A stretch of DNA of 64,000 bases, from IMG/VR virus record IMGVR_UViG_3300032093_008018, positions 18,559 through 82,558 of that record. One strand, given 5' to 3'. Below are positions 30,983 through 53,227 of this stretch, in pieces. Origin of the DNA: a virus. Its lineage: Duplodnaviria > Heunggongvirae > Uroviricota > Caudoviricetes. How positions within the stretch are numbered: position 1 is the first letter of the stretch; each line of letters starts with the position of its first letter. Made by a program: the position numbers and the translations under genes. The notes under the pieces were generated by a model, which was not told the DNA's origin, searched no databases, and saw nothing but the letters and a program-made list of their open reading frames with translations.

Positions 30983-31651
30983 TCAAATTAAAGAGCGATG
31001 GCAAACTTCACCCTGATTTATAGCTTCTAAATTTTGTGCTATCATTTTTAATAAGCGTTTAAACGGATAATCGTTATAAAACCAGTAATAATAATCCGCT
31101 AGATAACAGTCATCTTTAACTGCGCTGTTTATATCGCAAAGATGTTTTAGTGCATCAACTCCATATTTACGGTGAAGATTATGTGCTATGTTTACTGAAT
31201 AAGCAAACATTTCATCTGGATCTAGATAATAATCTCTTTGACGATCCCCAGTTTCGTCAATGCTTGCACAATCTCCTCGAAGATAAAATTGACGTCTGTG
31301 TATAGTTTCGTGACAGAGCGTATCAGCAACATCGTAAATTAACTGTTGCTTTAGATCTTCTGTAATGGGGAATTTCTTTTTAAAGCTAGAGCAGCAGATC
31401 TGTAACTCTATATCTCTAACATAATCAGAATCAAAAAAACCATTTATTCCAAAACAGTCTTTGGTAATTTTTGATCTTTGATAAGTTACCTTAATTTTAG
31501 TTTTAGAAGGTAACATTTTTTTGAGGATTTTGATCAGTTCCTCAGAACTTATTTTTTCAGTAGTTAACAGTCTATCCGTGAGATATACTATTACCCTATT
31601 CGGATCAATTATTTTATTTTCGGTAAACAATCCTTCCTTTGGAAAGGTCAT
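30983..31651 (-). CDS. Putative HExxH zinc metallopeptidase-like protein
   Basis: '[11 protein letters not shown]' HExxH motif. Confidence 0.4.
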
Positions 31652-31832
31652 AGGGGCTAAACTCCAAAGTTACTGTATCACCTAACAGAATTTTAATGTT
31701 GTTCTTCCTAATTTTACCGCTAGAATAAGCATATACTACTGTTTGGGTATCTGCTAATTTTACACGATAAGTTGTGTTGGGCAGAACTTCTACAATAGTT
31801 CCGTCGAACTTAATAATATCTTCTTTAGACAT
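31614..31832 (-). CDS. infA: Translation initiation factor IF-1
   Basis: 72 aa: '[62 protein letters not shown]' closely matches bacterial IF-1. Confidence 0.85.
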
Positions 31833-31834
31833 AT

Positions 31835-32392
31835 TTATAACAGATGATCTGCAACGTTGAGATCTATGACTTCCTGGGATGATAGATAAACATCACTGGC
31901 GGGCAGTAATTTCTTTTTGACTACGCTAGGAGCAAGTCCTGTAGCGTCTTTTAATATTTGTACCATTTTTTCATTACATAAATCATTTTCTCGCATAGTA
32001 GCTTTAAGGTCATGATATTTGTTATCCATACTTTCTGAAAACTGATGACACATAAAACTAGTATTACGAGCTGCGTATCTTTCACCTTGATCACCGCTGG
32101 CAAAAATTAAAAATGCTGCACTCATTACAGCACCGATACCAACAGTTCTAATTGTGTGATTACTGCTACGCATTACATCAATTAAGGCAAATGCTTGATA
32201 AAGATCACCGCCTGTTGAATTAACGTATAAAGTTAATGTTTTTTCCTTTGACTCTAGGTTTTCGTAAACAATCCATTTTATAGCACTTTTGATCGTGTCC
32301 TCATTTATTTCTCCCACTAAGAAATGTATACTGTTTCCGAGTAGTTCGATATCAATACGATCTTCGGCATTGAAGTCCTCGATTTTTTTCAC
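31835..32392 (-). CDS. clpP: ATP-dependent Clp protease proteolytic subunit ClpP-like (GTG start)
   Basis: '[17 protein letters not shown]', '[14 protein letters not shown]' (Ser) and 'FMCHQF' (His) match ClpP motifs. RBS GGAG upstream of the GTG. Confidence 0.8.
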
Positions 32393-32463
32393 AAATGCTC
32401 CATTTGATTAACTATGTACTTATCTAGAGTTTAGATTTCATACATATTTAATTAACTGCGCAC

Positions 32464-32736
32464 TTAATCTTTTGCCCAATTATTGGTTTCATGATCCCAG
32501 TGCCTGCTATCGTAAAAATTAAAAATTACTTCATAGCCCAAAAATGCCAGGCACAGGAATATTCCTGCATGATCTTGTCGAACACTGTATTGTATATCAA
32601 CACCTATAACATCATGAGTTTTATCAATCTGCGCTTCCCAAAACTTGTGTTTAAAAGGAGTAGTTCCAGACCACTGTTTGATGTTCTCCCAACGATCGCT
32701 CCAGGGATTGCTGATATTAAAAAATAATCTAAACAT
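32464..32736 (-). CDS. Hypothetical protein
   Basis: 90-aa ORF. Confidence 0.3.
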   Translation of the reverse strand: MFRLFFNISNPWSDRWENIKQWSGTTPFKHKFWEAQIDKTHDVIGVDIQYSVRQDHAGIFLCLAFLGYEVIFNFYDSRHWDHETNNWAKD

Positions 32737-32738
32737 TG

Positions 32739-33149
32739 TTAATAAGGTTCTTTAAAAACATCGATAGCTTCAGTGTCTACATTTTCAACCATATGTAACA
32801 TAAAGCGATATTGATCCCAAGCAGTTTTTACTGCTTCGCTGTCGGAATGAGATGTAGGAAAGATATCAACCCAAACTGCATTTTCTGGTTGGGCATGTCT
32901 TGGTATTCCCTGTTTGCGAGGTTGTAGAACTTTGTTTTGATTCCAAAGTGCAAGACCTACTTCCATGCAATCTTTTTCATTGTAGCCAAGGAGATAACTA
33001 GGTTCTGTTAGATAGTTAAGAATAACATTACGTACATGCTTCTCGTCATGCATACAAGTTGCTGCAATAATAAATGCAACATCTTCGAGTTCAACATCAC
33101 CGTTAACGATGTCACGAATACAGCGTCCAAAACTAAAACCAATTTTCAT
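32739..33149 (-). CDS. Hypothetical protein
   Basis: 136-aa ORF. Confidence 0.4.
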   Translation of the reverse strand: MKIGFSFGRCIRDIVNGDVELEDVAFIIAATCMHDEKHVRNVILNYLTEPSYLLGYNEKDCMEVGLALWNQNKVLQPRKQGIPRHAQPENAVWVDIFPTSHSDSEAVKTAWDQYRFMLHMVENVDTEAIDVFKEPY

Positions 33150-33205
33150 TTAAGTTACCTATATATTATTAAACAAGTTAATTATATACTCATTAACTTC
33201 AAAAG

Positions 33206-33427
33206 TCAATTGGTTTTCCATTTTAATTGAAACATTAAAACATCTTTAGAATCTTTAAATCGATATTCTGCCACGTGATCGAACATCATTGATACATCTG
33301 AAACATCTTGAACATGATAGTCAACAAAACTTTGACATTGAGCTTTGGCCCAATCTGCCGCTGTTTGAAAATATTCTAAGGATCTATCGTAGACTATTTT
33401 TGAATCATCGAGATATACTACTAACAT
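33206..33427 (-). CDS. Small protein with conserved C-terminal 'F-LKW' module (family member 1)
   Basis: C-terminal 'WAKAQCQSF...DVLMFQLKWKTN'. Confidence 0.5.
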   Translation of the reverse strand: MLVVYLDDSKIVYDRSLEYFQTAADWAKAQCQSFVDYHVQDVSDVSMMFDHVAEYRFKDSKDVLMFQLKWKTN

Positions 33428-33688
33428 TTAAGACCATTTCATGGCAAACATACTGGCGTCCTGTTCATTTTGAAAATACCAAGCACGGCAGTTAGATTCT
33501 CTTATATCTCGAAATTTACTTTGACAGTGTTCCATACACCACGTGAGTTTTTCATTAAAGTCGTCGTCACCTTCTAATCGTACAATATGATAACCATTTA
33601 AGATAGACATCAGTTTATCATCTTCTAATAATACCGAACCCACTTTTTTGTGAGCCATAGTAATAAATTGTTTTGGATTATCTTTCAC
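33428..33688 (-). CDS. Small protein, 'F-NE-DA-MF-LKW' family member 2
   Basis: C-terminal 'WCMEHCQSKF...WYFQNEQDASMFAMKWS'. Confidence 0.5.
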   Translation of the reverse strand: MKDNPKQFITMAHKKVGSVLLEDDKLMSILNGYHIVRLEGDDDFNEKLTWCMEHCQSKFRDIRESNCRAWYFQNEQDASMFAMKWS

Positions 33689-34080
33689 TCACCAAACCTC
33701 AACAACCATTCTGTTAATGCCGGACCCATTAGCTTGGCTCTAATTTGATATTTGTAACCAAATATACTGGTATCAGCCATTCGATACCACGTTGGGGTAT
33801 CCACGGCATTTTTCATTACCCACTGTCCTTGTTCACTTTTCTCCCACTCCCATAGAGGAGTAGCAGCGTAAAGATCTGGATCTTCAACATCCCCCATCGA
33901 GAATTGATGAACTATTATCTCTTTAACTTCTTCCACGCGATCTCCTTCGGGGGTGTTTATTATAACATACTTATTTGTTACCGGCCAACGAATCTTGTCT
34001 TTATGATTTGAAGAATATCGATCAGAAAGATATTCATTAATTTGAAAAGTTCTGTCGATATCCTTATACCATCTTGCCAT
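33685..34080 (-). CDS. Hypothetical protein
   Basis: 131-aa ORF inside the small-gene array. Lacks the family motif. Confidence 0.4.
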   Translation of the reverse strand: MARWYKDIDRTFQINEYLSDRYSSNHKDKIRWPVTNKYVIINTPEGDRVEEVKEIIVHQFSMGDVEDPDLYAATPLWEWEKSEQGQWVMKNAVDTPTWYRMADTSIFGYKYQIRAKLMGPALTEWLLRFGE

Positions 34081-34083
34081 GTA

Positions 34084-34395
34084 TTACATCCATTTTAATT
34101 GAAACAGTGTCGCTTCTTTATCTTCTTTAATAAAAACGGTGTACATGGGATCGCCACCGTTAAATCGGTGTGTGCAATCTGTCGTAGGACACATCTTAGC
34201 CATCCATTCTTCAAACTCATGATCGTCTTCGGGATATACCCAACAGTACCAACCACGAGGAGGAGGTCCTAAAGGGAAATGGCTACTGGGGTTAGGCACT
34301 GTCTTGCCGTCCTCAAAACGCCAATGGTGTACAGAAGTTTTTATAACCATTTTAAAGTAAACATCAAATAATCTTGTTCGTTGAGAAAGAACCAT
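34084..34395 (-). CDS. Small protein, family member 3
   Basis: C-terminal 'WMAKMCPTTDC...FIKEDKEATLFQLKWM'. Confidence 0.5.
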   Translation of the reverse strand: MVLSQRTRLFDVYFKMVIKTSVHHWRFEDGKTVPNPSSHFPLGPPPRGWYCWVYPEDDHEFEEWMAKMCPTTDCTHRFNGGDPMYTVFIKEDKEATLFQLKWM

Positions 34396-34571
34396 TCATA
34401 GCTTCCCGGTACGCCTCGACCTTGCCAAAATGTACACCATGTACCTTCTCTATATCCTATAGCTTCCCATCTAGGACCAAACTTTTCCTTGCACCATTCT
34501 GCAGCTTTTCCATGATTGGTTCTATCAGTAACTGTTTGGTAAGGAAAATCTCTAGCAGTTTTCATAACCAT
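34341..34571 (-). CDS. Small protein, family member 4
   Basis: C-terminal 'WCKEKFGPRW...WFFLNEQDYLMFTLKWL'. Confidence 0.5.
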   Translation of the reverse strand: MVMKTARDFPYQTVTDRTNHGKAAEWCKEKFGPRWEAIGYREGTWCTFWQGRGVPGSYEWFFLNEQDYLMFTLKWL

Positions 34572-34825
34572 TTTAGTGTAAAGTTAACAGCATCACCTTC
34601 ATTCTCAAATACAAAAGTGCTTCCTCTATGTTCAAAAGGATTTTTAATATTTTCTTCGCACCACATTAAAATATTCACAGAATGTTTACGACTAAAGAAT
34701 CTGGTTAATGTGACTTTCTTCCATCCGCAGGATTTGACCAACATATCAGAAAGAATATGAAAGTCCATTTCACTTTGCATCTGTGTAGCTAGTTCTTGAG
34801 TTATTTCTTCTTCTAAATTATTCAT
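34562..34825 (-). CDS. Small protein, family member 5
   Basis: C-terminal 'WCEENIKNPF...FVFENEGDAVNFTLKWL'. Confidence 0.5.
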   Translation of the reverse strand: MNNLEEEITQELATQMQSEMDFHILSDMLVKSCGWKKVTLTRFFSRKHSVNILMWCEENIKNPFEHRGSTFVFENEGDAVNFTLKWL

Positions 34826-35195
34826 AATGTCTTTCTATATCTTTTTCAAAGATACCCCACCCTAATCTAGTTCTAGGTGTATTCTTTCTAGACTGTACAC
34901 AGAGGTAACCTTCTTCATCAATGGATACAGTCCATTGATGATATTTTTTGTCGTAGAGAAAGTCTTGTAACTGTGCCACTAGAACTGCAGGCATTTTAAG
35001 ATCAGTATCAATAGCTGCTAAAGGCCCAGTCTTACCTCTTAAAATTTCTTGTAGTTTTAATTTTTCTAAACTATCTTGATTAAGAGGAGTAAATGACATC
35101 CTGTCATATAATGACAGGTGCCGAGATTTAGCTTCAACTTTATTAAAGTCGTGCTCTCTTATAATAACTTTTCGTCTTAAAAGTTTTATCGCCAT
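34818..35195 (-). CDS. Hypothetical protein
   Basis: 125-aa ORF in the array. No family motif. Confidence 0.4.
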   Translation of the reverse strand: MAIKLLRRKVIIREHDFNKVEAKSRHLSLYDRMSFTPLNQDSLEKLKLQEILRGKTGPLAAIDTDLKMPAVLVAQLQDFLYDKKYHQWTVSIDEEGYLCVQSRKNTPRTRLGWGIFEKDIERHYE

Positions 35196-35578
35196 TTTAA
35201 TACAAACACCATTCTATCTACTTCATTGTGGAACCAGAACTTGCGATTGTTCATGTACCAACGCTGTGCAGGATCTGGTGCTTTCTCGTTACCCCACATG
35301 TGTTCCCCAACTGAACCAAATGTTTCTACGCACCACGCTTCCATTTCTCGCCATACTCCACCAACTGGTTCTACACAATAATATCTAGCACCGTAGACTG
35401 TGCCTTCTGTGAGCTTAAGATCTTCTACAGGACGAGCATGAATATCTTCCCACAATCTTTGAAAAGCCTGAGTTGAAAAGGCACTCTTGCCTAAATTGCG
35501 TCCAGTAATTGTTGTCATACCTTTACCTTTATACTGTGTCATTTTATCTAAAAGGTTTAGTTGCCACGGTTGTATCAT
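35186..35578 (-). CDS. Small protein, family member 6
   Basis: C-terminal 'WCVETFGSVG...FWFHNEVDRMVFVLKWR'. Confidence 0.5.
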   Translation of the reverse strand: MIQPWQLNLLDKMTQYKGKGMTTITGRNLGKSAFSTQAFQRLWEDIHARPVEDLKLTEGTVYGARYYCVEPVGGVWREMEAWCVETFGSVGEHMWGNEKAPDPAQRWYMNNRKFWFHNEVDRMVFVLKWR

Positions 35579-35877
35579 TTCAATCTATTTCCTTCTGCGG
35601 TGCCCCAACGTAGCATAAACATTGTAGCATCTCTGTCGTTTTCAAATTGAAAATATAGTGCGTGGACATGCTCTAATCGCCAAAGTCCAGAACAATTATC
35701 TTCACACCACTTTCTCATGAGATCTAAAGATTCATATCCTATTGTGTCAAAGTTTATACGATAACTAAAGACAGCTCGAGATCTTGTAGCTAAAACTTGT
35801 TTAAGTTTAGTCCCAAGTTCTATGTCGTTCGGCAATCCATTCTCTTCCATCGTATTCCTCAACAATCCAATCAACAT
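35575..35877 (-). CDS. Small protein, family member 7
   Basis: C-terminal 'WCEDNCSGLW...YFQFENDRDATMFMLRWG'. Confidence 0.5.
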   Translation of the reverse strand: MLIGLLRNTMEENGLPNDIELGTKLKQVLATRSRAVFSYRINFDTIGYESLDLMRKWCEDNCSGLWRLEHVHALYFQFENDRDATMFMLRWGTAEGNRLK

Positions 35878-36558: not shown

Positions 36559-37356
36559 TTATTGTTTGGGTAACATCAAAGCGTTAAAGTTTGAAGGCAC
36601 TACAATAGTCTGCACTTGACCGTTCTTAATACCTTCGGAGATATTTAACATGGCTTGGGCCTGCATGAATGCAATTGATGCACCTGAGTTGTTAGCCAAT
36701 GCTGCCATACGACGGCTTTCGGCTTCAGCAGTCTTAACTTCAACTTCCTTCTGCTTCAACTCGTTCTTTGAACGAACTAATGCGTTAGCTGATTCAACCA
36801 CACTGTCTGCTGGCACAACATTACGAATCAGCACTTGACTAATCATAATAGTACCGTCCAACTTTTCTTCTGACAAGTTGCGAACGATCTCGTCTTGGAT
36901 GAACTTCTCCATTTCGCCACGATTGTCTGCCATGTCCAAGGCTTCGTACTTACGTGCGGCTTTGTAGATAGCATTACGAGCATTCTGAACAATGTAGTTA
37001 TACATCACATAAGTGTCGCCTTTGAAGTCAGCGTGGAAAGCCTTGTTCTTGGTAGCATACAGTTCTGATACTTGTTGTGGGTTGATGTTGTAAACAACCA
37101 CAGCATCAAAGTCTTTCATTGTGCTATTATCTTTGGCCACAGGAGTCATGTTCTCTAGTGTGACGTTGACATCCTTGATAGGGAATGTAAGCACGTCGCC
37201 AATCAATACCTGATTAAACGAACCAGGCAATAGTTCACCAGGTTGAACCTGTTTGTCAAAACCAACTCGTACACCAACCTCACCGGTTTCAATACGAGTA
37301 CAGCCAGTTGCCAACACAGCGGCAGCGATAAGGCCAAGAGTTGCGATACGTTTCAT
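36559..37356 (-). CDS. SPFH/band-7 (prohibitin-like) lipoprotein
   Basis: Lipobox 'LATGC'. SPFH-like core. C-terminal coiled-coil 'KQKEVEVKTAEAESRRMAA'. Confidence 0.7.
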   Translation of the reverse strand: MKRIATLGLIAAAVLATGCTRIETGEVGVRVGFDKQVQPGELLPGSFNQVLIGDVLTFPIKDVNVTLENMTPVAKDNSTMKDFDAVVVYNINPQQVSELYATKNKAFHADFKGDTYVMYNYIVQNARNAIYKAARKYEALDMADNRGEMEKFIQDEIVRNLSEEKLDGTIMISQVLIRNVVPADSVVESANALVRSKNELKQKEVEVKTAEAESRRMAALANNSGASIAFMQAQAMLNISEGIKNGQVQTIVVPSNFNALMLPKQ

Positions 37357-37368
37357 GTGTGTAAATCC

Positions 37369-39460: not shown

Positions 39461-39461
39461 T

Positions 39462-39935
39462 TTAATCTCCTGTATTTTCTTTTGTAAGTTCGCACATTAA
39501 CATAAAATGATCATACGCCTTTCGAACACTTTCATGTTTTAAAAGTTTATCTGCTTCTTCCTGCATAGCTTTAATACCTGCTTCTGCACAATCATGAATG
39601 CTCAATCCTTGTAAGGTACAAAGTTCATCGCCAAATGCTTTGGCCAATGCTTCCCAGGCTTTCTTCTGCTGAGGAGTAATTGGAGAACGAGGAGGACGTA
39701 GTTCAGCGGCTTTGGCGATAGCCCTACAGATTTTGTCTTCGGCAACACGACCCGCAGCAATCATAGGAGCATAAGCTGGATCAATCTTAAAGCGACGACT
39801 AGTGCCGCCGGGGTATACAGACACAAGATGATCCCCTTTGGGGAAACTATCTAATAGTTCGTTGTCATATTCTGCTACCGGAATATAACGGCGACCTTCT
39901 TTTCTATAAAATAGGATGGGGGATTTGGAAATCAT
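39462..39935 (-). CDS. Hypothetical protein
   Basis: 157-aa ORF downstream of a consensus sigma70 promoter. Confidence 0.45.
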   Translation of the reverse strand: MISKSPILFYRKEGRRYIPVAEYDNELLDSFPKGDHLVSVYPGGTSRRFKIDPAYAPMIAAGRVAEDKICRAIAKAAELRPPRSPITPQQKKAWEALAKAFGDELCTLQGLSIHDCAEAGIKAMQEEADKLLKHESVRKAYDHFMLMCELTKENTGD

Positions 39936-43242: not shown

Positions 43243-43254
43243 TTGCTCCTCTCC

Positions 43255-44012: not shown

Positions 44013-45848
44013 TTATTGTCCTGAAATATTATATTGTTGTTCTATCATTCTTTGGTGTAGTGCATCACTACCTCCAGACAAACCTCTTAACAACCTTTGA
44101 TTATCAACAGTTCGCTGTCCTCGATAAATTTCTTTACTTTGATAAAACTGTGCATCTTTTAATTGTGAATTAAGATATTGATTAAAATCCATCGGTGCTT
44201 TTGCTAATGTGGTAGGATCTGGTCCTCCCTCCATACCTTCTACTGCTCCACCTCTTCTTACACTAGGTCCTGCCTTTTGATTAGTATCTGGAACTGTTTG
44301 AATTGGTGTTATCAGTAAATTAATATTATCAGTTGGTCCGGAAGATTTTTGTGCAGTATTATTTTTGCCTTCATCCTTTTTATCTTCAAACTTGTCATCA
44401 TTAAATGATTGAGATCTATTATTTTGTAAAGTTAATCCAGAACCTAATGCTATACTAGTTCCGTCATTAGGACCTATACTAGCTTGACTCATTACTATTG
44501 CTTGTTCTGATGTAGCCAATGCTGTACGTTCTGTAGCTGCCACTGCTGCCATGGCTACAGCAAGAGCTCTAGGATCTACACGTTTTCTGTCAGATTCTCT
44601 ATTGGCGGTTTCTCTATTGGCGGATTCTGTTTTATTTTCTTCTCTTGTCGATTCTTTTATTGCTTCTTTAGTAGAAGCAGTTTGACCAGTGGGTATGCTA
44701 ATTTGACCGCTGGTAGTTAATTCAACTCCGCCCACATCTGTAGTCACAAGTGTTTCAGTTCTAGTAGGATCGGCCAATGATACTGTTGGTGACGATGCTT
44801 GTGCAGTTGAGGTTGAAGATGTAGGGATTGGCGAACTGGTCGTTGTTGCAGTTTCCGTTGATTCGGTTTGTTTATCCTGCAGATCTTTAAGAACTTTTGC
44901 CTGTGCATAACCAGGGCATTGTGTATTATAAAGTGCATTCAACGAACATTGATTATTAAAGAAAGCCTGTGCGTAACCTGGACATCCTGGATCGTATAAT
45001 GCATTTATTGAACACTGCTGTGAATAATAAGCCTGCGCATAACCAGGGCAAGTGGGATCATACAAAGCATTGATTGAACATTGTTGTGTATAATAAGCCT
45101 GTGCGTAACCCGGACATGTACTATCATATAAGGGATTTATTGAACATTGATAATTTTTAAATGCTTCTGCATATCCAGTACAGGATACACTACTAAGAGG
45201 ATTTATCACGCATTGATCAACTGAATATCTTAGACTAAAATTAACATTATTAATTTCTGGACCGTAAGGTCCTGCCCACCCATTATTATCACGACCAACA
45301 AATCCATAAGTAACATTTCCTAATGTACTAGCAGAGTATGGTGTTGTAAAATTTCTTGAAAAATTAAAGTTAGTCCAATTAAATTTGTAGTTTAGATCAT
45401 ATGAATCATACTCTACTACGCTACCATTAGAGTTTTTAAAATGCACATAAGCGTTTAGATAATCTACGCGACCATCGTCCCACCCATTACCATTCTTAGC
45501 CATAAAACTAAAAGTATATCCGTTAACTTGTAATCCAGTACCGGAATTAGGTAACACATTTGCTATGGCCTGGCTCTGATATAAGTCTGTCGTACCAAAT
45601 GAGAAGTTTATACTTCCACCCGGACGAACAATTGCGTTTGGTCCACAATATCCTGGATTGCCCCAACTCCAGCAGGTGAGATTGTCTTGATACACTCCCC
45701 CAACCCAAGGAGTCGTTCCGGAACCAGCAACAGTAGGAAGAACTATGTTGCCGGTGGTATACTCAACGCCAGGTTCTTGAGCGTTAGAATAGTGCGAAAA
45801 GCAGAGCGCCAAGCAAAGCGCCGAAGCCAGTTTTCTTATAGAAATCAT
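44013..45848 (-). CDS. Secreted protein with 5 tandem ~20-aa Cys repeats and a Ser/Thr-rich linker (start at the internal Met preceding the signal peptide)
   Basis: Signal peptide 'MISIRKLASALCLALCFSHYSNAQE'. Repeats 'QCSINALYDPTCPGYAQAYY' x5. Confidence 0.5.
   Translation of the reverse strand: MISIRKLASALCLALCFSHYSNAQEPGVEYTTGNIVLPTVAGSGTTPWVGGVYQDNLTCWSWGNPGYCGPNAIVRPGGSINFSFGTTDLYQSQAIANVLPNSGTGLQVNGYTFSFMAKNGNGWDDGRVDYLNAYVHFKNSNGSVVEYDSYDLNYKFNWTNFNFSRNFTTPYSASTLGNVTYGFVGRDNNGWAGPYGPEINNVNFSLRYSVDQCVINPLSSVSCTGYAEAFKNYQCSINPLYDSTCPGYAQAYYTQQCSINALYDPTCPGYAQAYYSQQCSINALYDPGCPGYAQAFFNNQCSLNALYNTQCPGYAQAKVLKDLQDKQTESTETATTTSSPIPTSSTSTAQASSPTVSLADPTRTETLVTTDVGGVELTTSGQISIPTGQTASTKEAIKESTREENKTESANRETANRESDRKRVDPRALAVAMAAVAATERTALATSEQAIVMSQASIGPNDGTSIALGSGLTLQNNRSQSFNDDKFEDKKDEGKNNTAQKSSGPTDNINLLITPIQTVPDTNQKAGPSVRRGGAVEGMEGGPDPTTLAKAPMDFNQYLNSQLKDAQFYQSKEIYRGQRTVDNQRLLRGLSGGSDALHQRMIEQQYNISGQ
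44898..45215 (-). repeat. Five imperfect 60-bp tandem coding repeats
   Basis: Encodes the C-x-xN(P/A)LYD-x-xCPGYAQA units. The nucleotide periodicity is visible. Confidence 0.6.
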
Positions 45849-46614
45849 CACTCTTTGGTTCCTCAGTTTTTGGCCACTTGTTAGGATTTTCATTCCATGC
45901 TACACGAGCCTGTTCACCAATCACACCTTCATAAGGACAAGGTGTGCCAGCATTCCACATAGCATCAAAAACTCTACGATCCTGACACATTGTAGCTACC
46001 GCAGCAACTTTCATTCCCATATCATAAAGTGTCTTGGCGTTTTTTAATCTTTCGCAATTCATATCTCTTACTGTACCACCACTACTGACACCTAATATTT
46101 GTGTTTGAACAGCACCACTGGTTCCTGTAGTACATAAATCATTATTGCCACCGCTCATCATTGCAGGTGCAATGGCAGTTGGTGGAGGTTGAATTACTTT
46201 TTGTGTAATATTACTGTCATTAATATTACGATTGGTCATATCACCACTGTTGATATTTTGATTTACATTATTGTTTTGATTGGTACTGGTTGCTGTACTG
46301 GTACTAGTGTTTACATTAGTATTATTATTTGTATTAGTGTTAGCACTGGTTGTATGACCGGTATTAATATTGTTGTTGGTATTAACACTCGTACTAGTAC
46401 TGGTATTTTGGTTTACATTGGTATTGACACTATTACTGTTAACTGTACTGGTGTTTATATTATTATTAGTGTTGGTACTGGTGCTGTTAACCGTGCTAGT
46501 ACTTGTTGAGTTATTATTGGTATCTACTAAACTTTTACTATCATACGTTGTTTGCGAAAATGCAGGGGTGGTTAAAGATCCCAGCAATACGCCCGTTATT
46601 ATTATTTTTTTCAT
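45784..46614 (-). CDS. Secreted Asn/Ser/Thr-rich low-complexity protein with Cys-containing C-terminal domain
   Basis: Signal peptide 'LLGSLTTPAFSQ'. ~120 aa of N/S/T repeats. C-terminal hydrophobic tail. Confidence 0.45.
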   Translation of the reverse strand: MKKIIITGVLLGSLTTPAFSQTTYDSKSLVDTNNNSTSTSTVNSTSTNTNNNINTSTVNSNSVNTNVNQNTSTSTSVNTNNNINTGHTTSANTNTNNNTNVNTSTSTATSTNQNNNVNQNINSGDMTNRNINDSNITQKVIQPPPTAIAPAMMSGGNNDLCTTGTSGAVQTQILGVSSGGTVRDMNCERLKNAKTLYDMGMKVAAVATMCQDRRVFDAMWNAGTPCPYEGVIGEQARVAWNENPNKWPKTEEPKSDDFYKKTGFGALLGALLFALF

Positions 46615-46922: not shown

Positions 46923-46929
46923 TGAATAT

Positions 46930-47610
46930 TTAGTTTATTTCTGGAAATAAACAATCTTGAATAAAATGCTTAACATCTTCTTCACTAAGCCCCAAACTAA
47001 CCATAACTCTAGGGGTGTGCGGATTTTGTTTTTGATTCTGTGCGTAATAATTTTGCTCAAACGTTGTATCTGCAACTTTGTGATTTGTTTCGCCTACTGT
47101 TTCTAAATAATGATTTACTAGAATGTTCGCTAGACCGCTAATTTGAGATAATTCTGATTCTTCTTGCACATTGCCAGCGGCCACCATGTGTGAACTGAAT
47201 ATACGTTGCGCCCATTCAGGTAGTTCACGTTTGCGGATCCATTCGTATCTACTGACTTCTTCAGCAAAATATTCGATCATAGGATGCTGTTTATCAGCTG
47301 TTGGGCTGTAGTCTATAAAACAACCTGTGATTTTATTTTTTCCTGCAATTACATCAAATCCAAAAATAGGAGCAGGATTGTGTATGTGAGGAAAGATGCA
47401 GCAATGCATCATCCAAAGGCCCTTTGAGGATCGGGCGTCAACTACGTCGACATGAGCTCTGCGATAATGATCGCTGCACCAAACTCTATTTACCCAACCC
47501 GGTTGATTAAATCTTTCCATTCCGGGCTCAAAAGTTTCAATGCCTGTCTCTGAAAATCTTTTTTCTAACAGTTTTTGTATTTCAATTAGACTGTTCCAGA
47601 CCTGACTCAT
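46930..47610 (-). CDS. Ferredoxin-dependent bilin reductase (PebS/PcyA/PcyX family)
   Basis: 'RRAHVDVVDARS...HCCIFPHIHNPAPIFGFDVIAG...GCFIDYSP' FDBR signature. Confidence 0.75.
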   Translation of the reverse strand: MSQVWNSLIEIQKLLEKRFSETGIETFEPGMERFNQPGWVNRVWCSDHYRRAHVDVVDARSSKGLWMMHCCIFPHIHNPAPIFGFDVIAGKNKITGCFIDYSPTADKQHPMIEYFAEEVSRYEWIRKRELPEWAQRIFSSHMVAAGNVQEESELSQISGLANILVNHYLETVGETNHKVADTTFEQNYYAQNQKQNPHTPRVMVSLGLSEEDVKHFIQDCLFPEIN

Positions 47611-48148
47611 TATACAATTCTCTCATCATTTTAATGGCCCATTCAAACGCAACTCTTGCTTCGTCTCCTAGGTCATCAGTTAGTTCTGCACGTATGGACA
47701 TTTTTAATGCATCTGCATCTTTAAAATCATAAAAACGACCTTTGCTAATATGTGCTACTTGTTTTTTAATTATTTGACCACCATACAGATCTCCCATATG
47801 TCGACAATATAGATGAGCTTTGATTTTAGGACGATGCGCAGGATCACGAACTAAATTTAAGAGATAGTTGTAATAGTCTATAGTTCCAGGTAACCATTTG
47901 TAATTGTGATCAACACCTGCGATCTCAATAAAGTCTTGATAGATTGCGTGTGTTCTTTCTAAACCAGGAAGATTTTTAAAATTGCCTTCTACTCGATTAC
48001 CTAACTCTATAGCATTATAAATTAATACTAACTGATAAAGGTAGTTGGCATAATCTTCTTTAGTAATTTTTCCGCTAAGTAACATCTTAGCAAATTGGGT
48101 TGTTTCTGCTTCGTGATGAAGATCTTTGGTAATTTCTTTTAAACTCAT
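47582..48148 (-). CDS. Heme oxygenase
   Basis: 'LKEITKDLHHEAETTQFAKMLLSGKITKEDYANYLYQ' matches the HO proximal-helix signature. Confidence 0.75.
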   Translation of the reverse strand: MSLKEITKDLHHEAETTQFAKMLLSGKITKEDYANYLYQLVLIYNAIELGNRVEGNFKNLPGLERTHAIYQDFIEIAGVDHNYKWLPGTIDYYNYLLNLVRDPAHRPKIKAHLYCRHMGDLYGGQIIKKQVAHISKGRFYDFKDADALKMSIRAELTDDLGDEARVAFEWAIKMMRELYNESGLEQSN

Positions 48149-48158
48149 AGTTTTTTAT

Positions 48159-48416
48159 TTACTTAGGCCCGTATCTCAGTATCATCATTGTGGCATCTAT
48201 TTCTTTATCTAATTTTATACAAAATGTATGAATTGTTTTTTCATATTGCCAACGCTCACCTACTGGCCCTAGAATTTCTGTAAAGAAGCTTATAAAATTC
48301 TTTCTTCCTTTTTTACCCAAATTATATCTTCTAAGGTCGTGAAAAATTATCCAAAAAGAAAACCGACTAGTTTCAGCGTTCATATATCGTATGAACTTAA
48401 ACTCGTCGGCTGTCAT
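48159..48416 (-). CDS. Small protein, distant member of the 'DATMF-L-W' family
   Basis: C-terminal 'FCIKLDKEIDATMMILRYGPK' resembles 'FENDRDATMFMLRWG'. Confidence 0.35.
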   Translation of the reverse strand: MTADEFKFIRYMNAETSRFSFWIIFHDLRRYNLGKKGRKNFISFFTEILGPVGERWQYEKTIHTFCIKLDKEIDATMMILRYGPK

Positions 48417-48725: not shown

Positions 48726-48739
48726 ATTTCCTCTGTAGG

Positions 48740-48773
48740 TTAATTAAGGGGAAGTTTCCTTCCCCTTAATTAT
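48740..48773 (-). terminator. Perfect 14-bp stem-loop between hsp20 and clpS (attenuator or stability hairpin; weak U-tract)
   Basis: TTAATTAAGGGGAAG-TTTC-CTTCCCCTTAATTA. Confidence 0.4.
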
Positions 48774-48774
48774 A

Positions 48775-49212
48775 TTACTTAATGTCTACAATGTCAATGA
48801 CTTTCGGTTTCGCAGACTCTGGAACATTACGGACCAACTTAATGGTTAACATACCATTTTTGGTTTCCGCTCCAGTAACTTCAATATGTTCTGCTAGAGG
48901 AAATTCTTTAACAAAATCGCGAGTAGCAAGACCGCGATGAATGTATTGTTCTGGCGCATGATCTGTAGCCATGCTTTCACCTTTAACAATAAGAATTCCG
49001 TCCTCTACAGTAACAGAAATTTCTGTTTTATCAAATCCAGTAACTGCTAATTGAATCTCATACTGATTTTCACCAGTTTTAAGAATGTTGTGAGGTGGAT
49101 AGTTATTAGATACACTATTAGAAAAACGTCTTTCCATTTGATCAAACAGTGTGTCAAATCCAATAAGAGCTCTGTTAAGAGCTGTAATTTGTGCTAACTG
49201 ATTATTATTCAT
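48775..49212 (-). CDS. Small heat-shock protein (Hsp20/alpha-crystallin)
   Basis: Alpha-crystallin domain. C-terminal 'NGMLTIKLVRNVPESAKPKVIDIVDIK' matches the IbpA/B pattern. Confidence 0.85.
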   Translation of the reverse strand: MNNNQLAQITALNRALIGFDTLFDQMERRFSNSVSNNYPPHNILKTGENQYEIQLAVTGFDKTEISVTVEDGILIVKGESMATDHAPEQYIHRGLATRDFVKEFPLAEHIEVTGAETKNGMLTIKLVRNVPESAKPKVIDIVDIK

Positions 49213-49303
49213 ATTAATCTCCTTTTAAAGTAAGAATATGAGCTTTATGCTCAATGTTGCGGCCCATTAGGTACCGCAACATTATACACACATATGTGTA
49301 TTC

Positions 49304-51217
49304 TTAAGATGCCTTGCCTTCAGTTGCTGTAAAGGAAGCATCGATCACTTCACCATCAGTTGGCTGCGGTGCAGATTGTTCTGCTTTGGCAGCTTCGCGT
49401 TTGGCTTTAATTTTTTCAAACAAAGGTTTTGCAGCATCGGCTACATTGAAAGGACCTTTCTTAATTTCTTCAATGTCACTATTATCATTGACTAATTTTT
49501 CAGCAGCCTCTAGTGCATCTTCAATTATTTTCCATTCTTCTTCTGTAGCAAGATCTTTTTCTGCTTCTAATTCTCTGCGAATTGTATACAGTTCAGATAA
49601 TGCACCATTACGTGTTTCAATAACTTCACGTGCTTTTTTATCTTCTTCTGCATATTGTTCTGCTTCAGCGATCATACGTTTGATTTCATCTTCAGTAATG
49701 CCGCTATTAGCTTTAATGGTAATTTTATTTTCTTTACCAGTATTTTTGTCTTTGGCACTTACGCTTAAAATACCATTAGCATCAATATCAAATGTAACTT
49801 CAATTTGAGGCATACCACGTGGTGCTGGATCAATACCTTCAAGATTAAATTCGCCTAACAATTTGTTATGATGTGCCAATTCGCGTTCTCCTTGGAACAC
49901 ACGAATAGTAACAGCAGGTTGATTGTCATCAGCTGTACTGAAAATTTGATTTGCCTTAGTTGGAATAGTAGTATTCTTAGCAACCAGTTTGGCCATTACA
50001 CCGCCTACTGTTTCAATACCCAAAGTTAATGGAGTAACATCTAACAATAGGACATCTTTACGATCACCACCCAACACAGCACCTTGGATAGCAGCACCAA
50101 CTGCTACTGCTTCGTCTGGGTTAACATCTTTACGTGGCGCTTTTCCAAATAAACGTTCTACTTCTTCTTGTACCTTTGGCATGCGAGTTTGGCCGCCAAC
50201 TAGAATAACTTCGTCGATCTGATCTGCGGTAACTCCGGCATCTTTCATAGCAATACGACAAGGTTCTAATGAACGTTGAATTAAATCGTCAACTAACTGT
50301 TCCAATTTTGCCTTGGTAATTTTTACCACTAGATGTTTAGGACCACTAGCATCGGCAGTAATGTATGGAAGATTAACTTCAGTTTGTGTAGAATTAGATA
50401 ATTCAATCTTAGCTTTTTCAGCAGAGTCCTTAAGACGTTGTAGTGCCAACATATCTTTAGTTAGATCAATGCCTTGCTCTTTCTTAAATTCCTCAACCAG
50501 ATAATCCATAATGCGCTGGTCAAAGTCTTCACCGCCTAAGAATGTATCGCCGTTTGTTGACAATACTTCAATTTGTTTGTCGCCTTCGACGTTGGCAATC
50601 TCAATGATACTGATATCAAATGTGCCACCACCTAAGTCATACACCGCAATCTTACGATCAGCTTTGTCTGTCTTGTCAACACCGTAGCTTAATGCAGCCG
50701 CAGTAGGTTCGTTAATAATACGTAGAACTTCTAAGCCAGCGATTTGACCGGCATCTTTAGTTGCCTGTCTTTGACTATCATTGAAGTAAGCAGGCACTGT
50801 AATAACAGCCTGTGTAACTTCATGCCCTAAATAGTCCTCTGCAGTCTTTTTCATCTTGCGAAGAACTTCTGCAGACACCTGTGGAGGTGCCATTTCTTTT
50901 CCTTGTGCGCGAATCCAAGCATCACCATTTGTTGCCTTGACAATTTCATAAGGCATTAGGTCAATGTCCTTCTGAACAGCCTGTTCATTGAACTTACGTC
51001 CAATTAACCGCTTAGATGCATAAATTGTGTTTTTGGGATTAGTTACCGCCTGACGCTTTGCTGAAGCACCTACTAAAATATCGCTGTCTGTATAAGCAAC
51101 AATACTCGGAGTTGTTCTTGCGCCTTCTGAGTTTTCAATTACTTTGGATTTGCCGTTTTCAATAACAGCTACACATGAGTTTGTGGTACCCAAATCGATA
51201 CCGATGATTTTTGACAT
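49304..51217 (-). CDS. dnaK: Hsp70 chaperone DnaK (start at '[18 protein letters not shown]' with RBS AAGGAG)
   Basis: Canonical Hsp70 motifs throughout: 'IDLGTTNS', 'DLGGGTFD', '[11 protein letters not shown]'. Confidence 0.95.
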
Positions 51218-51298
51218 ATTTTTCTCCTTAAAAAGTAAGAATTTAATGAGCACTGAGCTCGTTACAATTAGCCCATTGGGTGCTAATTGCGTTTTTAT

Positions 51299-52378
51299 TT
51301 ATCTCGTAAAGACATCATTAAATTGCATATTGACCCTAATAAATGTAGTACATTTAGATAATTGTTTAAGACTTGCAGCACCTACATATGTGCAAGAACT
51401 ACGCAGTCCGCCCAACATATCCAAAATTGTACTTTGGACCGGGCCCTTATACGGTACTCTTACCGTACGTCCTTCTGATGAACGATATTCAGCTATGCCA
51501 CCATGATGCTTGTTCATAGCAGTATTTGAACTCATTCCATAGAATTCTACATATTTTTTAATTTCATAATCATTTGAAAACATATCTTTTTGAAGTTTTG
51601 AAAGTTCGTGCATTTCTTCAATAACTTCACCGCCGCCCTCATCATGACCGGCTAACATGCCTCCTAACATTACAAAGTCTGCTCCGGCGCCAAACGCCTT
51701 AGCAATGTCACCGGGACACACACAACCACCATCAGCAATAATATGGCCGCCGAGACCATGAGCAGCGTCAGCACACTCAATAATAGCACTGAGCTGAGGA
51801 TAACCGACGCCAGTTTGTATCCTAGTTGTACAAACACTGCCTGGACCAATGCCCACTTTGATAATATCTGCTCCACGTAAAATTAACTCCTGTGTCATGT
51901 CTGCGGTAACAACGTTACCTGCGATAATTGTGTGATTAGGAAATGCCTCACGCACTTCTTCTACATAGTCCCCGAAGTGTTCGCTATATCCATTTGCTAC
52001 ATCTATACAGATAAATTTTATTTCGGAATAAGAATTAAGTATGTTACTTAATCTTTCAAAGTCCTTTTCGGAAGTCCCTGTGCTTACTGCGAAATGATTG
52101 CCTCCTATATCTTGTACGGTTGTTTCAAAGTATACCGTACTGATATTCTTAACTAGGCAAGTGAACATTTTGTGTTGATATAGAGCATGAGCCATTTCTA
52201 GTGTACCAACACCGTCCATGTTACTGGCCATAATCGGAACTCCTGTCCACTCGGCGCGACTGTGTTTAAATTTGTAAGTCCTTGTTAAGTCAACTTCTTT
52301 GCGACTTGATAAAGTACTGCGCTTAGGACGAATAAGAACATCTTTGAAATCTAATTTGATTTCATCTTCGATTCTCAT
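51299..52378 (-). CDS. guaC: GMP reductase (IMPDH/GuaC family, no CBS insert)
   Basis: '[23 protein letters not shown]' matches the GuaC N-terminus. Catalytic loop '[11 protein letters not shown]'. Confidence 0.9.
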
Positions 52379-52956
52379 CTTGAATCCTTTAATGGAGAAA
52401 GCAATTGGCCGTCTAATGTCGACGATGTTCGCAATCTACGGAAAACATTTTGCACACCAATTGCTTGATTATAAGAATCGTGTAACGCATGGTGAGCTAA
52501 TACTTCAGGGCGGTCTGGATTGATACCAAGATCAAAAATTGTTCTAGTATCTCTTACTTGCCAGAAACTCCAAGGGTAACCTTTTCCCATTTTGCGAAAT
52601 ACTGTTTCTAAAATAACAACGTCAAAGCCAGCACCGTGACTCCATACACGTTTAGCACCCCAACAGAATTTATAAAGTTGATTCATAGCACTAACAATAT
52701 CAACTCTACCTTCGGTTCCAAATGCTTCGTCTTGAGCTGCTTGACTTTGTTTTGCCCACCATTCAAGAGTATCTTGTGATGTAGCTAATCCTAACCGATC
52801 ACAACTGTCAATATCTACACGTAGATAAAAACTTTCCATTGCTGGTTCTTTTAATTCTTGCCCAAACGGATCAAATTTCACTGCGCCAATACTTAAAATT
52901 GCAGCATCAGGAGTGGTGGCAAGGGTTTCGAGGTCTATCATTATATCTGAGTTCAT
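52375..52956 (-). CDS. DEDDh-family 3'-5' exonuclease
   Basis: Exo I 'MIDLETL'. Exo III '[10 protein letters not shown]'. 4-nt overlap with guaC. Confidence 0.65.
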
Positions 52957-52962
52957 AGTACT

Positions 52963-52991
52963 ATTATAAACTACTTTCTTTCAGATGTCAA
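52963..52991 (-). promoter_or_regulatory. Perfect sigma70-consensus promoter TTGACA-N17-TATAAT, 6 nt upstream of the exonuclease ATG (leaderless mRNA predicted)
   Basis: Minus-strand read: TTGACATCTGAAAGAAAGTAGTTTATAATAGTACT-ATG. The -35 element overlaps the S21 stop codon. Confidence 0.5.
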
Positions 52992-53227
52992 TAGAGTTTA
53001 GGTGGTAATTCTTGTGAACGTAATTGTTTGCGCCAACGTGCCTTAGCCGCTGATTTTTTACGCTTACGTTCTGTAGTAGGTTTTTCGTAAAATTCTTTTT
53101 TACGGAGGGTGTCAAGTGTGCCGGATTCTTCTATTTTTTTCTTAAAACGTCTAAGAGCACGATTAATATCTTCGCCATCTTTAACTGTAACTACACTACC
53201 AGAAGGTTTATTCGTAAATTTGTTCAT
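52988..53227 (-). CDS. rpsU: Ribosomal protein S21
   Basis: 'INRALRRFKKKIEESGTLDTLRKKEFYEKPTTERKRKKSAAKARWRK' matches bacterial S21. Confidence 0.85.
   Translation of the reverse strand: MNKFTNKPSGSVVTVKDGEDINRALRRFKKKIEESGTLDTLRKKEFYEKPTTERKRKKSAAKARWRKQLRSQELPPKLY

Follow-up and report, generated by a model that had tools for sequence, protein, structure and literature searches.

The question raised by this locus is why a stretch of viral DNA should carry six genes of protein quality control and translation, namely those for the Hsp70 chaperone DnaK, the small heat-shock protein (sHsp) Hsp20, the adaptor ClpS, the protease ClpP, initiation factor IF-1 and ribosomal protein bS21. The stretch analysed (the window; 64 kb, positions 18,559 to 82,558 of IMG/VR virus record IMGVR_UViG_3300032093_008018) has a G+C content of about 0.35 and lies within a 138-kb JGI contig. 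A preliminary description had presented the six genes as a dispersed set without their usual partners and had left a choice between a virus that remodels host protein quality control and a reduced cellular genome.

The window probably comes from a T4-superfamily jumbo phage of myovirus type, a relative of Rak2 and Atu_ph07 with Betaproteobacteria (Burkholderiales) as its most likely hosts, whose lineage captured dnaK once and kept it in a cassette with Hsp20 and ClpS. The DnaK and Hsp20 genes share a structured 5′ leader that was found only at chaperone genes and that may act as an RNA thermometer, a function proposed here tentatively. When phages carry genes for chaperones, Clp proteins or translation, these tend to be catalogued one by one as oddities; in the present clade they belong to a conserved cassette.

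Materials and methods

Gene identity was judged by NCBIfam equivalog cut-offs and Pfam gathering scores. For the comparison of DnaK loci, 80 IMG/VR loci were fetched via DnaK and neighbours were sought by tblastn within 10 kb; a separate set of 80 related viral ClpP loci was used for ClpP. Individual loci are cited by number (L008 and so on). The readable part of the window's genome, including its flanks, came to about 94 kb. The J-domain and ClpX probes each passed a positive control before negatives were used. The DnaK tree was calculated by neighbour-joining from 75 phage and 70 bacterial sequences. Ratios of nonsynonymous to synonymous substitution (dN/dS) were calculated pairwise against relatives.

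The leader alignment was fitted to its model, and an independent seed alignment gave the same covariation pattern. Since variable stems are misaligned by MAFFT, so that RNAalifold overlooks hairpin 1 in a plain MAFFT alignment, a curated seed and a covariance model were used.

Results and discussion

Gene identity

Profile searches recovered all six genes at the places given in the preliminary description, all on the minus strand (Table 1). By these scores DnaK, IF-1 and bS21 pass curated equivalog models, and Hsp20, ClpS and ClpP are clear but diverged members of their families. DnaK exceeded two NCBIfam equivalog cut-offs (NF001413, 969 versus 648; TIGR02350, 901 versus 822.55). Its true start is an ATG (MSKIIG), not the upstream GTG, and the protein aligns end to end with E. 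coli DnaK (residues 1–622). In this alignment K70, R167, N170, E171, T173, the D194–D201 loop (DLGGGTFD) and the linker VLLLDVTPL are kept, so that the catalytic residues, the interdomain linker and the DnaJ-contact residues (R167/N170/T173) are intact as read from the protein sequence. The best NCBIfam models for Hsp20 were IbpA and IbpB, below cut-off (117 versus 212), and its C-terminus shows an I-x-I-like VIDIV. ClpS fell short of the NCBIfam equivalog cut-offs (99.5 versus 149); its N-degron pocket motif NDDYTPMEFV and the pocket His are conserved with respect to the solved structures 3DNJ and 3G1B.

Arrangement and conservation of the cassette

The genes proved not to be dispersed. Those for DnaK, Hsp20 and ClpS follow one another, separated by 91 and 49 nt, and those for ClpP and IF-1 are adjacent, 2 nt apart, in a pair that sits 16 kb from the DnaK block. 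The bS21 gene lies 1.8 kb upstream of DnaK in the same co-oriented run, the order of which is bS21, exoribonuclease, GMP reductase, DnaK, Hsp20, ClpS, a small open reading frame (ORF), heme oxygenase and bilin reductase.

Most of this run recurs in the 80 related viral DnaK loci. Hsp20 was found near DnaK in 73 of them, ClpS in 71, bS21 in 69 and the exoribonuclease in 64, followed by heme oxygenase (58), bilin reductase (54) and GMP reductase (21). IF-1 follows ClpP in 26 of the 80 related ClpP loci, and the ClpP variant and DnaK often occur on the same viral contigs, 17–21 kb apart. In some relatives (L008, at 11950–13873, L023, L057 and L058) GroES and GroEL (818 bits to solved GroEL) are inserted between DnaK and Hsp20, the order in L008 being DnaK, GroES, GroEL, Hsp20, ClpS.

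The identical DnaK protein was present on 23 independently assembled metagenome contigs with the same neighbours, one of these contigs measuring 0.2–1 Mb. At 73–82% identity, DnaK was found on at least 595 IMG/VR contigs of up to 353 kb; relatives reach 214–364 kb.

Origin and selection

The nearest cellular DnaK proteins were 67–76% identical and almost all from Burkholderiales (Rubrivivax, Limnohabitans, Polynucleobacter and Rhodoferax, with Methylophilaceae also listed). In the tree the phage DnaKs formed a single bipartition in 100 of 100 neighbour-joining bootstraps, beside the DnaKs of Burkholderiales. Because the phage proteins are monophyletic, one old capture of dnaK followed by vertical inheritance is the most direct reading.

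All six genes are, by pairwise estimate, under purifying selection. The dN/dS values were 0.09 (0.087) for DnaK, 0.12 for ClpP, 0.14 for IF-1, 0.16 for bS21 and 0.21 for both ClpS and Hsp20; they are approximate because dS was saturated (about 2), which weakens this part of the case. Since the cassette is conserved, vertically inherited and under purifying selection on hundreds of contigs, its genes would be core to the infection strategy rather than transient pick-ups from a host.

A structured leader restricted to chaperone genes

DnaK and Hsp20 are each preceded by a leader of one and the same family (Table 1), with fold z-scores of −3.0 and −4.7, respectively. The exact motif ATTCTTACTTTWWAAGGAG is found in the window only before these two genes (0.14 expected), and the leader occurs nowhere else in the window. 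Across the clade the pattern consists of (T/G)ATAAATA, a stem-loop, often a second short hairpin, and AUCUU(G/A)CUU...AAGGAGAU...AUG; in the first stem-loop the stem sequence varies freely while the pairing is kept. A regular-expression scan of 3.3 Mb returned the leader 166 times, of which 83 were before DnaK, 75 before Hsp20 and four before GroES; the GroES of some relatives thus has the same structured leader. When 2.8 Mb of viral sequence was searched with the covariance model (22 seeds), each of the 86 matches lay at a chaperone gene and on its strand; 0.57 Mb of cellular dnaK loci (80 loci, Burkholderiales examined) gave no match. Nor was the leader found at ten other genes tested in the clade.

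Pairing in the leader is supported by covariation. Over 70 distinct matches, 94.5% of cells were paired versus 76.5% in shuffles, and double-sided changes were seen in 224 cells versus 68. Slid-partner controls collapsed (at most 0.064 versus 0.381).

Two cellular heat-shock elements were considered and rejected. A CIRCE/HrcA operator (DnaK hairpin TTAGC-N9-GCTAA) was discarded on the Hsp20 copy, which has unrelated stem sequences around the same loop, and a sigma-32 promoter for want of a CTTGAA −35 element.

Thermometer or constitutive enhancer

The leader fits the 5′ untranslated region (UTR) of a heat-shock gene whose Shine–Dalgarno (SD) sequence lies inside the 3′-most hairpin. ROSE-like thermometers have a conserved U(U/C)GCU opposite the SD sequence with a bulged G (PMC11342760). 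In the leaders of relatives, the RNAfold structures set the SD sequence against UUGCU within a hairpin and leave a bulged G between a U.G and a C-G pair, and CUUGCUU with the predicted bulged G is present in 73 of 134 unique leaders of relatives. When 4227 Rfam families were compared with L065, ROSE_3 (26.5 bits versus a gathering score of 43) and ROSE_2 (22.8 versus 65) fell exactly on the DnaK and Hsp20 leaders. The predicted accessibility of the SD sequence in chaperone leaders rose from 0.10–0.21 at 5 °C to 0.34–0.39 at 45 °C, and the corresponding values for the two window leaders were 0.05 and 0.26 in one and 0.02 and 0.34 in the other; most other genes gave a flat 0.45–0.7. Because the matches lie below the gathering score, the leader is termed ROSE-like in its working principle and is not filed as a member of the family.

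Taken with the promoter motif described below, these features allow us to propose, tentatively, a clade-wide phage heat-shock regulon in which DnaK, the IbpA-like sHsp and, in some members, GroES–GroEL stand behind a virus-specific ROSE-like thermometer and a late promoter, independently of host sigma-32.

Several observations weigh against a thermometer. The SD helix is nearly invariant, so covariation cannot prove it, and its support comes from structure prediction. Both window leaders read CUUACUU, with an A at the bulge and UUACU rather than U(U/C)GCU, and about half of all leaders likewise have A instead of the bulged G. The ROSE matches are below gathering, and a permissive Rfam scan of 48.0–53.6 kb in the window gave no ROSE match at E up to 1. 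An occluded SD sequence is likewise predicted for one gene that encodes no chaperone (Hydrolase_2). The opening with temperature is gradual and is a thermodynamic prediction.

The leader could instead be a constitutive element composed of a 5′ stabilising hairpin, a T7-gene-10-like 'epsilon' enhancer and a strong SD sequence, or the site of a RegA/RegB-type regulator, and we regard this as a real possibility short of a probable one. The leader sequence ATCTTACTTTATAAGGAGATA resembles the T7 gene 10 leader, which is TTAACTTTAAGAAGGAGATATA. Strong covariation of hairpins 1 and 2 beside an invariant SD helix would suit such an element, as would the low ROSE scores, the A in place of the bulged G and the modest predicted opening. 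Restriction to three different chaperone genes is, however, the pattern of a stress-type regulon and is unexpected for a generic enhancer. The Rfam families that land on the L065 leaders are ROSE thermoregulator models, and the predicted accessibility of the SD sequence is far below that of most other genes of these phages, which is the opposite of what an enhancer should do.

A thermometer function would make this the first description, for a virus, of a chaperone regulon under RNA-thermometer control, and the phage would itself sense temperature or folding stress and tune its chaperone supply to virion production. Virus-encoded environmental sensing would then extend to the control of chaperone translation, with a bearing on temperature and on phage–host dynamics in lakes. 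The covarying leader is in addition a concrete and cheap experimental handle on how a virus regulates borrowed proteostasis machinery.

Promoter motifs and expected timing

The T4 late promoter is TATAAATA, about 6–8 nt before the transcript start, and is common to virion genes (gp55/gp33 encoded). The pattern [TG]ATAAATA has only six sites in the window and was present in 59 of 64 unique DnaK leaders. Another of its sites (30970–30977, intergenic) lies 32 nt before a tail-fibre-like ORF, an assignment that is tentative because the ORF had no tblastn match in GenBank phages, and the motif stands 29–31 nt before the tail-spike gene in the same phage and two relatives (L253, L258 and L260). As the motif also precedes tail genes, we infer late co-expression of DnaK and Hsp20 with virion genes. 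It should be set against this that the promoter assignments are consensus matches, the window DnaK copy, GATAAATA, agreeing at 7 of 8 positions. In most relatives Hsp20 comes directly after the DnaK stop codon and has the hairpins without the late motif, which suggests a dnaK–hsp20 bicistron. A late-type motif of its own is missing for bS21 (two of 59 leaders).

Host-type promoters are also predicted. The window holds six near-perfect sigma-70 consensus promoters versus 1.4 expected, a number reached in none of 100 shuffles, and five of the six lie shortly upstream of a start codon on the gene strand, among them the sites before ClpS and the exoribonuclease. Among relatives a sigma-70-like site (at most two mismatches) precedes the exoribonuclease in 36 of 50 unique leaders, and such a site was found in 24 of 68 unique ClpS leaders. 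Between the sigma-70 −10 box and the ClpS start there is a perfect 14-bp palindromic hairpin (TAATTAAGGGGAAG/CTTCCCCTTAATTA; 48741–48772) with a weak Rfam IMES-4 match (27.6 bits, E 0.22, below gathering); it could be an Hsp20 terminator or a ClpS regulatory site.

Proposed mechanism

The lineage would have captured a cellular dnaK once, long ago, and retained it under purifying selection, holding dnaK, the IbpA-like sHsp and ClpS as one cassette and the diverged ClpP, IF-1, bS21, a tRNA array and a transfer-messenger RNA (tmRNA) elsewhere in the genome. DnaK and Hsp20 would be transcribed from a T4-late-type promoter, of the type also found before tail genes. Each chaperone mRNA would begin with a stabilising stem-loop, and each leader would end in a hairpin that hides the SD sequence in the manner of a ROSE RNA thermometer. 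Promoter, stem-loop and SD hairpin together would make chaperone synthesis late, strong and conditional.

The sHsp may then hold aggregation-prone phage proteins, and phage DnaK may refold them with DnaJ and GrpE supplied by the host or encoded at a distance in the phage genome, so sustaining mass production of a very large virion. ClpS, expressed from host-type sigma-70 promoters, could dock on host ClpA and redirect ClpAP to N-degron substrates. The diverged ClpP would join a canonical ClpP in the role of a ClpP2-like subunit; the canonical partner would come from the phage itself in some relatives and from the host here. IF-1, bS21, the tRNAs and tmRNA would bias and protect translation.

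Remodelling of host protein quality control, as first suggested for this locus, is plausible for ClpS and ClpP. For DnaK and Hsp20 the cis-elements point elsewhere: they indicate late, strongly controlled expression alongside virion genes, which suggests that these chaperones fold the phage's own proteins or prevent their aggregation.

A different use of the chaperone and Clp genes would be counter-defence, that is, neutralising chaperone-dependent immunity (toxin–antitoxin–chaperone systems or DnaJ-dependent NLR-like sensors) or degrading defence proteins. The idea has been raised for moraphage DnaJ/DnaK (PMC12619734) and for the patchy ClpP and ClpS of jumbo phages (PMC7824862), and the host-type sigma-70 promoters of ClpS are compatible with early expression. 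The motif before DnaK, however, is late-type and common to tail genes rather than early. Nearly all members of the clade have DnaK, Hsp20 and ClpS, by vertical inheritance, whereas counter-defence genes typically turn over fast, and no defence-related partner genes were recognised nearby. We therefore consider counter-defence unlikely as the main function.

ClpP and missing partners

The gene had been described as that of a ClpP subunit. Membership of the family is borne out by the Pfam match and by a Ser-His-Asp triad that aligns to ClpPs in the Protein Data Bank (PDB; about 66 bits); the protein nevertheless scores below every NCBIfam ClpP cut-off (best 87.9 versus 249; TIGR00493, 70.4 versus 308.6) and is better described as a diverged paralogue. 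Its profile match begins at position 12, leaving the N-terminal axial-loop region unmatched. This diverged ClpP was found on at least 129 viral contigs. In 17 of the 80 ClpP loci a canonical ClpP (207 bits) lies directly upstream of it; these tandem loci fall in L113–L168 (for example L148, 2359–2979 with 4148–4705). Full-length ClpX was present in ten related loci, either beside the ClpP pair or directly upstream of DnaK, and was 44–53% identical to the E. coli ClpX probe (for example L166, 4520–5698, and L027, 8514–9653). Of the two paralogues the window lineage has the diverged ClpP alone.

An S14-type capsid (prohead) maturation protease is an improbable identity for this protein. The T4-superfamily prohead protease is of the gp21 type, which counts against it. 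The best PHROG matches are indeed head maturation proteases (phrog_94, 79 bits), and divergence from cellular ClpP, with its low scores against PDB and NCBIfam entries, would agree with such a role. Cellular ClpP models nevertheless outscore the head-maturation model (87.9 versus 51.7 for NCBIfam Clp_rel_HeadMat, the latter below its cut-off of 120). The protein is a stand-alone full ClpP fold of 185 residues, fused to neither scaffold nor capsid; it is flanked by IF-1 and small ORFs and not by portal or capsid genes; and the tandem position behind a canonical ClpP in 17 of 80 loci, with ClpX nearby in several, is a ClpXP1P2 layout.

The absence of dnaJ and grpE beside dnaK, and of clpX beside clpP, noted at the outset, holds for the window and about 10 kb on each side. 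The cellular order grpE–dnaK–dnaJ is not found at the window dnaK; this is a feature of context and not of the protein family. The J-domain probe matched none of the phage loci (the window and 172 viral or metagenome loci), versus dnaJ beside dnaK in 57 of 59 cellular loci, and the ClpX probe had no match in the window or its flanks. No DnaJ, GrpE, ClpA or ClpX gene was found in the approximately 94 kb of the window's genome, so partner usage is an assumption of the proposed mechanism, and this tells against it. Since relatives carry ClpX and canonical ClpP, the missing partners are a local fact: the picture of scattered genes without partners is right for the neighbourhood and wrong for the clade, in which ten related phages encode ClpX and 17 a second, canonical ClpP. 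What the window phage has appears to be a cut-down form of the fuller repertoire of its clade. The ClpP series (canonical and diverged with or without ClpX, here diverged alone) offers a natural system for learning if a phage subunit is able to invade a host Clp protease.

Viral origin and relationships

The window contained no tRNA, tmRNA, rRNA or any other Rfam family at gathering level. Past its right edge the contig encodes a permuted tmRNA of betaproteobacterial type together with glutaredoxin and class I ribonucleotide reductase, and also a phage exonuclease and two virion genes, for a tail spike and a structural protein; beyond the left edge there are further radical-SAM genes and a dense array of 17 tRNAs. 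In relatives 18–31 tRNAs lie just downstream of ClpP. One small window ORF falls in a PHROG common to PhiW-14/ACP17-type myoviruses. In one member of the clade (L072), DnaK has as its neighbour a family B DNA polymerase that is 41–49% identical to those of the jumbo phages Phosso, Atu_ph07 and Rak2-like phages.

A viral rather than a reduced cellular genome is thus indicated by the lack of rRNA, by the tail spike and virion protein that the contig adds and by the module shared among at least 595 IMG/VR contigs, and the cellular alternative is effectively excluded. Genes typical of cellular housekeeping, phage DnaKs only slightly closer to the window DnaK (77–82%) than those of Burkholderiales (up to about 75%), and tRNAs and tmRNA on the contig might speak for a reduced symbiont genome or for host DNA mis-assembled or mis-binned with phage, but this is scarcely credible for a region with no rRNA or ribosomal-protein operon, with a dnaK that lacks the dnaJ neighbour of 57 of 59 cellular loci, with a gene order repeated on the 23 assemblies of the exact DnaK and hundreds of viral contigs, with a separate phage DnaK clade (100/100), with a tail spike, virion protein and phage exonuclease on the contig, and with a phage-specific leader not found at cellular dnaK loci.

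Two points weigh against the assignment to a jumbo myovirus as such. The DNA polymerase placement was taken from a 19-kb relative and not from the window's own contig, and no capsid, portal or terminase gene was found on any module-bearing contig in two portal-based scans and in walks, which covered 10 kb past each window edge and led from the tail spike to L253. This is the chief weakness of an assignment that all the other lines of evidence favour. The scans (with the Atu_ph07 portal, then with a same-sample portal) returned hundreds of T4-type portals from the same samples, none of them on DnaK, ClpP or tail-spike contigs, and tetranucleotide composition was unable to assign portal fragments to the clade. 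A nucleotide search with 23 kb against GenBank phages gave no match.

Table 1. Features of the window, in descending order of position.
Feature	Position	Strand	Evidence and remarks
bS21, 79 aa	52988..53227	-	Pfam Ribosomal_S21 70.2 bits; NCBIfam S21p equivalog 66.8 versus cut-off 28.95
Sigma-70 consensus promoter (predicted), TTGACA-17-TATAAT	52963..52991	-	12/12; just upstream of exoribonuclease–GMP reductase run
Rv2179c-like 3′-5′ exoribonuclease	52375..52956	-	Pfam PF16473 134 bits
GMP reductase	51299..52378	-	NCBIfam GMP reductase equivalog 555 versus cut-off 397
T4-late-promoter-like motif, GATAAATA	51296..51303	-	86 nt upstream of DnaK ATG
DnaK leader: two covarying hairpins and predicted SD-occluding hairpin (UUCUUACUUUUUAAGGAG)	51215..51295	-	Model R1 69.9 bits, E 5e-14
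DnaK/Hsp70, 637 aa	49304..51217	-	Pfam HSP70 838 bits
Hsp20 leader, same family as DnaK leader	49210..49287	-	Model R1 63.7 bits, E 2e-12
Hsp20, IbpA-like, 145 aa	48775..49212	-	Pfam HSP20 59.9 bits versus gathering 20.8
Sigma-70 consensus promoter (predicted)	48769..48797	-	Perfect consensus; upstream of ClpS
ClpS N-degron adaptor, 102 aa	48417..48725	-	Pfam ClpS 99.6 bits versus gathering 23
Heme oxygenase	47582..48148	-	Pfam; downstream of ClpS; context, not proteostasis set
Ferredoxin-dependent bilin reductase	46930..47610	-	Pfam; downstream of heme oxygenase; context, not proteostasis set
Diverged ClpP-family serine protease, 185 aa, GTG start	31835..32392	-	Pfam CLP_protease 103.8 bits versus gathering 20.2
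IF-1, 72 aa	31614..31832	-	Pfam 74.7 bits; NCBIfam infA equivalog 98.9 versus cut-off 61.15
Tail-fibre-like ORF (tentative)	30016..30945	-	Weak PHROG matches at N- and C-termini

Other genes and RNAs of the window and its relatives

The tmRNA of the window contig (L085, 7926–8407; beta_tmRNA 136 bits, tmRNA_permuted 153 bits) lies about 0.4–0.9 kb past window position 64000; tmRNA was also found in L039, L044, L053, L080 and L099. The tag of the window phage is unusually long at 27 residues (ANDNAFDFTAMSFTGNTVANDSKFALAA) and ends in ALAA, and the tags of relatives are short (ANDEQFALAA) or of other extended forms. The last residues of every tag are LAA, a degron of ClpXP/ClpAP, and this connects the tmRNA with the Clp genes. 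The tRNA array of the window contig (L089, 17778–20749; 17–18 genes) is about 2.7–5.7 kb before window position 1, and dense arrays were also found in L104, L122, L124, L125, L129 and L159. A tRNA with a CUA anticodon in L110 (8891–8965), called tRNA-Pyl by ARAGORN, could be an amber suppressor.

Window positions 1–30000, together with L089 11256–16985, form an island of about 30–35 kb with at least eight radical-SAM/SPASM enzymes and many cupin/Asp-Arg-hydroxylase-like and 2-oxoglutarate-dependent oxygenase paralogues; a PIG-L deacetylase, an aminotransferase, SGNH-type ORFs and a methyltransferase are encoded there as well. The island, which may serve to modify glycans, peptides or DNA, has the tRNA array on one side and the tail-fibre/IF-1/ClpP genes on the other. 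In relatives the tRNA array is only 1–10 kb from ClpP, and the ORFs of the island have almost no homologues in the 80 ClpP loci; because those loci mostly lack them, the island looks like a lineage-specific hypervariable insertion.

The bilin reductase downstream of the cassette is PcyA/PebS-like (99 bits to the PcyA model, below its cut-off), and the heme oxygenase/bilin reductase pair occurs in a phage whose likely hosts are non-photosynthetic Betaproteobacteria. Downstream of this pair, some relatives (L020, 15651–16955; L041, 17728–18702; L014, 16963–18141) encode CsgG (the curli secretion channel), curlin-repeat and FecR-domain proteins. The matching place in the window (44013–46614) holds two secreted low-complexity proteins instead, one of 626 residues with QCSINALYDPxCPGYAQAYY repeats and one of 276 residues rich in Asn and Thr.

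Eight small paralogous ORFs (73–130 residues; 33206–35877 and 48159–48416, minus strand) share a C-terminal motif of approximately (F/W)xFxxExDAxxFxLKW. One copy stands directly after ClpS, and several copies are kept in 19–41 of the 80 related loci. PHROG and Pfam scans of many small ORFs, these paralogues included, returned no families.

Window positions 59194–62829 encode a phosphate-selective porin O/P, PstS (equivalog 439 versus 339), an AhpD-like CMD protein and an AhpC peroxiredoxin. Few relatives have the porin or PstS (one and two of 80 loci, respectively), AhpC and AhpD occur in about 20, and part of the block looks like a recent host-derived addition. An SPFH/Band 7 lipoprotein (36559–37356), a D-Ala-D-Ala carboxypeptidase (Peptidase_S11; 39904–40713), a calcineurin-like phosphoesterase (40698–41507) and a SleB-type cell-wall hydrolase (Hydrolase_2; 57461–58000) are further envelope-related auxiliary genes.

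A very conserved ORF of 402 residues was identified as isocitrate lyase (L260, 721–1929; L292, 10001–11209), with glycosyltransferases, an endonuclease and an oxygenase upstream. It is 60% identical to enterobacterial AceA, is also found in phage C48C1 and is a glyoxylate-shunt auxiliary gene. It was present on at least 181 IMG/VR contigs, and many of the related viral contigs share it at 86–100% identity. One relative of 106 kb, which has the ClpP too, carries it about 8 kb upstream of the tail-spike gene.

Comparison with known systems

Every gene type described here has precedent in large phages, and the leader is the more novel element. No description of the clade or of a phage ROSE-like element was found in the literature searched, the coverage of which was incomplete. 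That S21 and IF-1 are known viral auxiliary genes, as the preliminary description had it, agrees with published work (PMC9723584). DnaK was also found by tblastn in Lak and other huge phages.

Atu_ph07, the nearest relative in culture, is reported to encode ClpX, ClpA, ClpB, ClpP, ClpS and DnaJ at scattered positions, and remodelling of host protein quality control has been proposed for it (PMC6102473); it also encodes Hsp20, and ClpP, ClpS, Hsp20 and DnaJ have been reported in jumbo phages (PMC7824862). Atu_ph07 and the Rak2-like jumbo phages resemble the clade in their DNA polymerase, the nearest known (41–49%), and in their large tRNA sets and Clp/chaperone genes. They differ in having no DnaK by tblastn, and neither a DnaK–sHsp–ClpS cassette nor a shared structured leader has been reported for them. 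Their hosts are Alpha- or Gammaproteobacteria, whereas those of the window clade are probably Betaproteobacteria, and there is no nucleotide-level similarity.

The moraphages are large freshwater phages of Bacteroidota, some with DnaK, DnaJ, Hsp20 and a ClpA-like ATPase, in which DnaK has been interpreted as a host-derived auxiliary chaperone (Perez-Hernandez et al., 2025; PMC12619734). They are likewise uncultured large aquatic phages with DnaK and Hsp20. Their DnaK nests in Flavobacteriaceae and is present in 8 of 25 genomes, whereas the window DnaK stands beside Burkholderiales and is monophyletic across at least 595 contigs. Moraphages also have DnaJ, none of which was found here, and belong to a different phage lineage.

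In bS21-encoding freshwater phages, Hsp20 and Clp protease genes are common at distances of up to ten genes from bS21, and the phage bS21 has been proposed to gain control of ribosomes in late infection (Chen et al., 2022; PMC9723584). Those phages infect Bacteroidetes and carry bS21 among capsid, portal and terminase genes; here it lies upstream of the exoribonuclease–GMP reductase–DnaK run.

With the ROSE thermometers of proteobacterial ibpA/hsp genes (ROSE, ROSE_2 and ROSE_3) the leader shares its place in the 5′ UTR of a small heat-shock gene, two or three hairpins and, by prediction and in about half of the copies, a last hairpin in which U-rich UUGCU pairs imperfectly with the SD sequence. 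Unlike them it is virus-encoded, stands also before dnaK and groES and scores below gathering, and its thermosensing is putative. The tandem of canonical and diverged ClpP in 17 of 80 relatives, with the triad retained, recalls the heteromeric ClpP1P2 proteases of Mycobacterium, Listeria and Pseudomonas. The window phage differs from these in having only the diverged copy, and mixed rings with another ClpP are putative. Distinctive of the present clade are a Burkholderiales-like DnaK fixed in a large group of phages, the DnaK–sHsp–ClpS cassette, the series of canonical and diverged ClpP and the leader restricted to chaperone genes.

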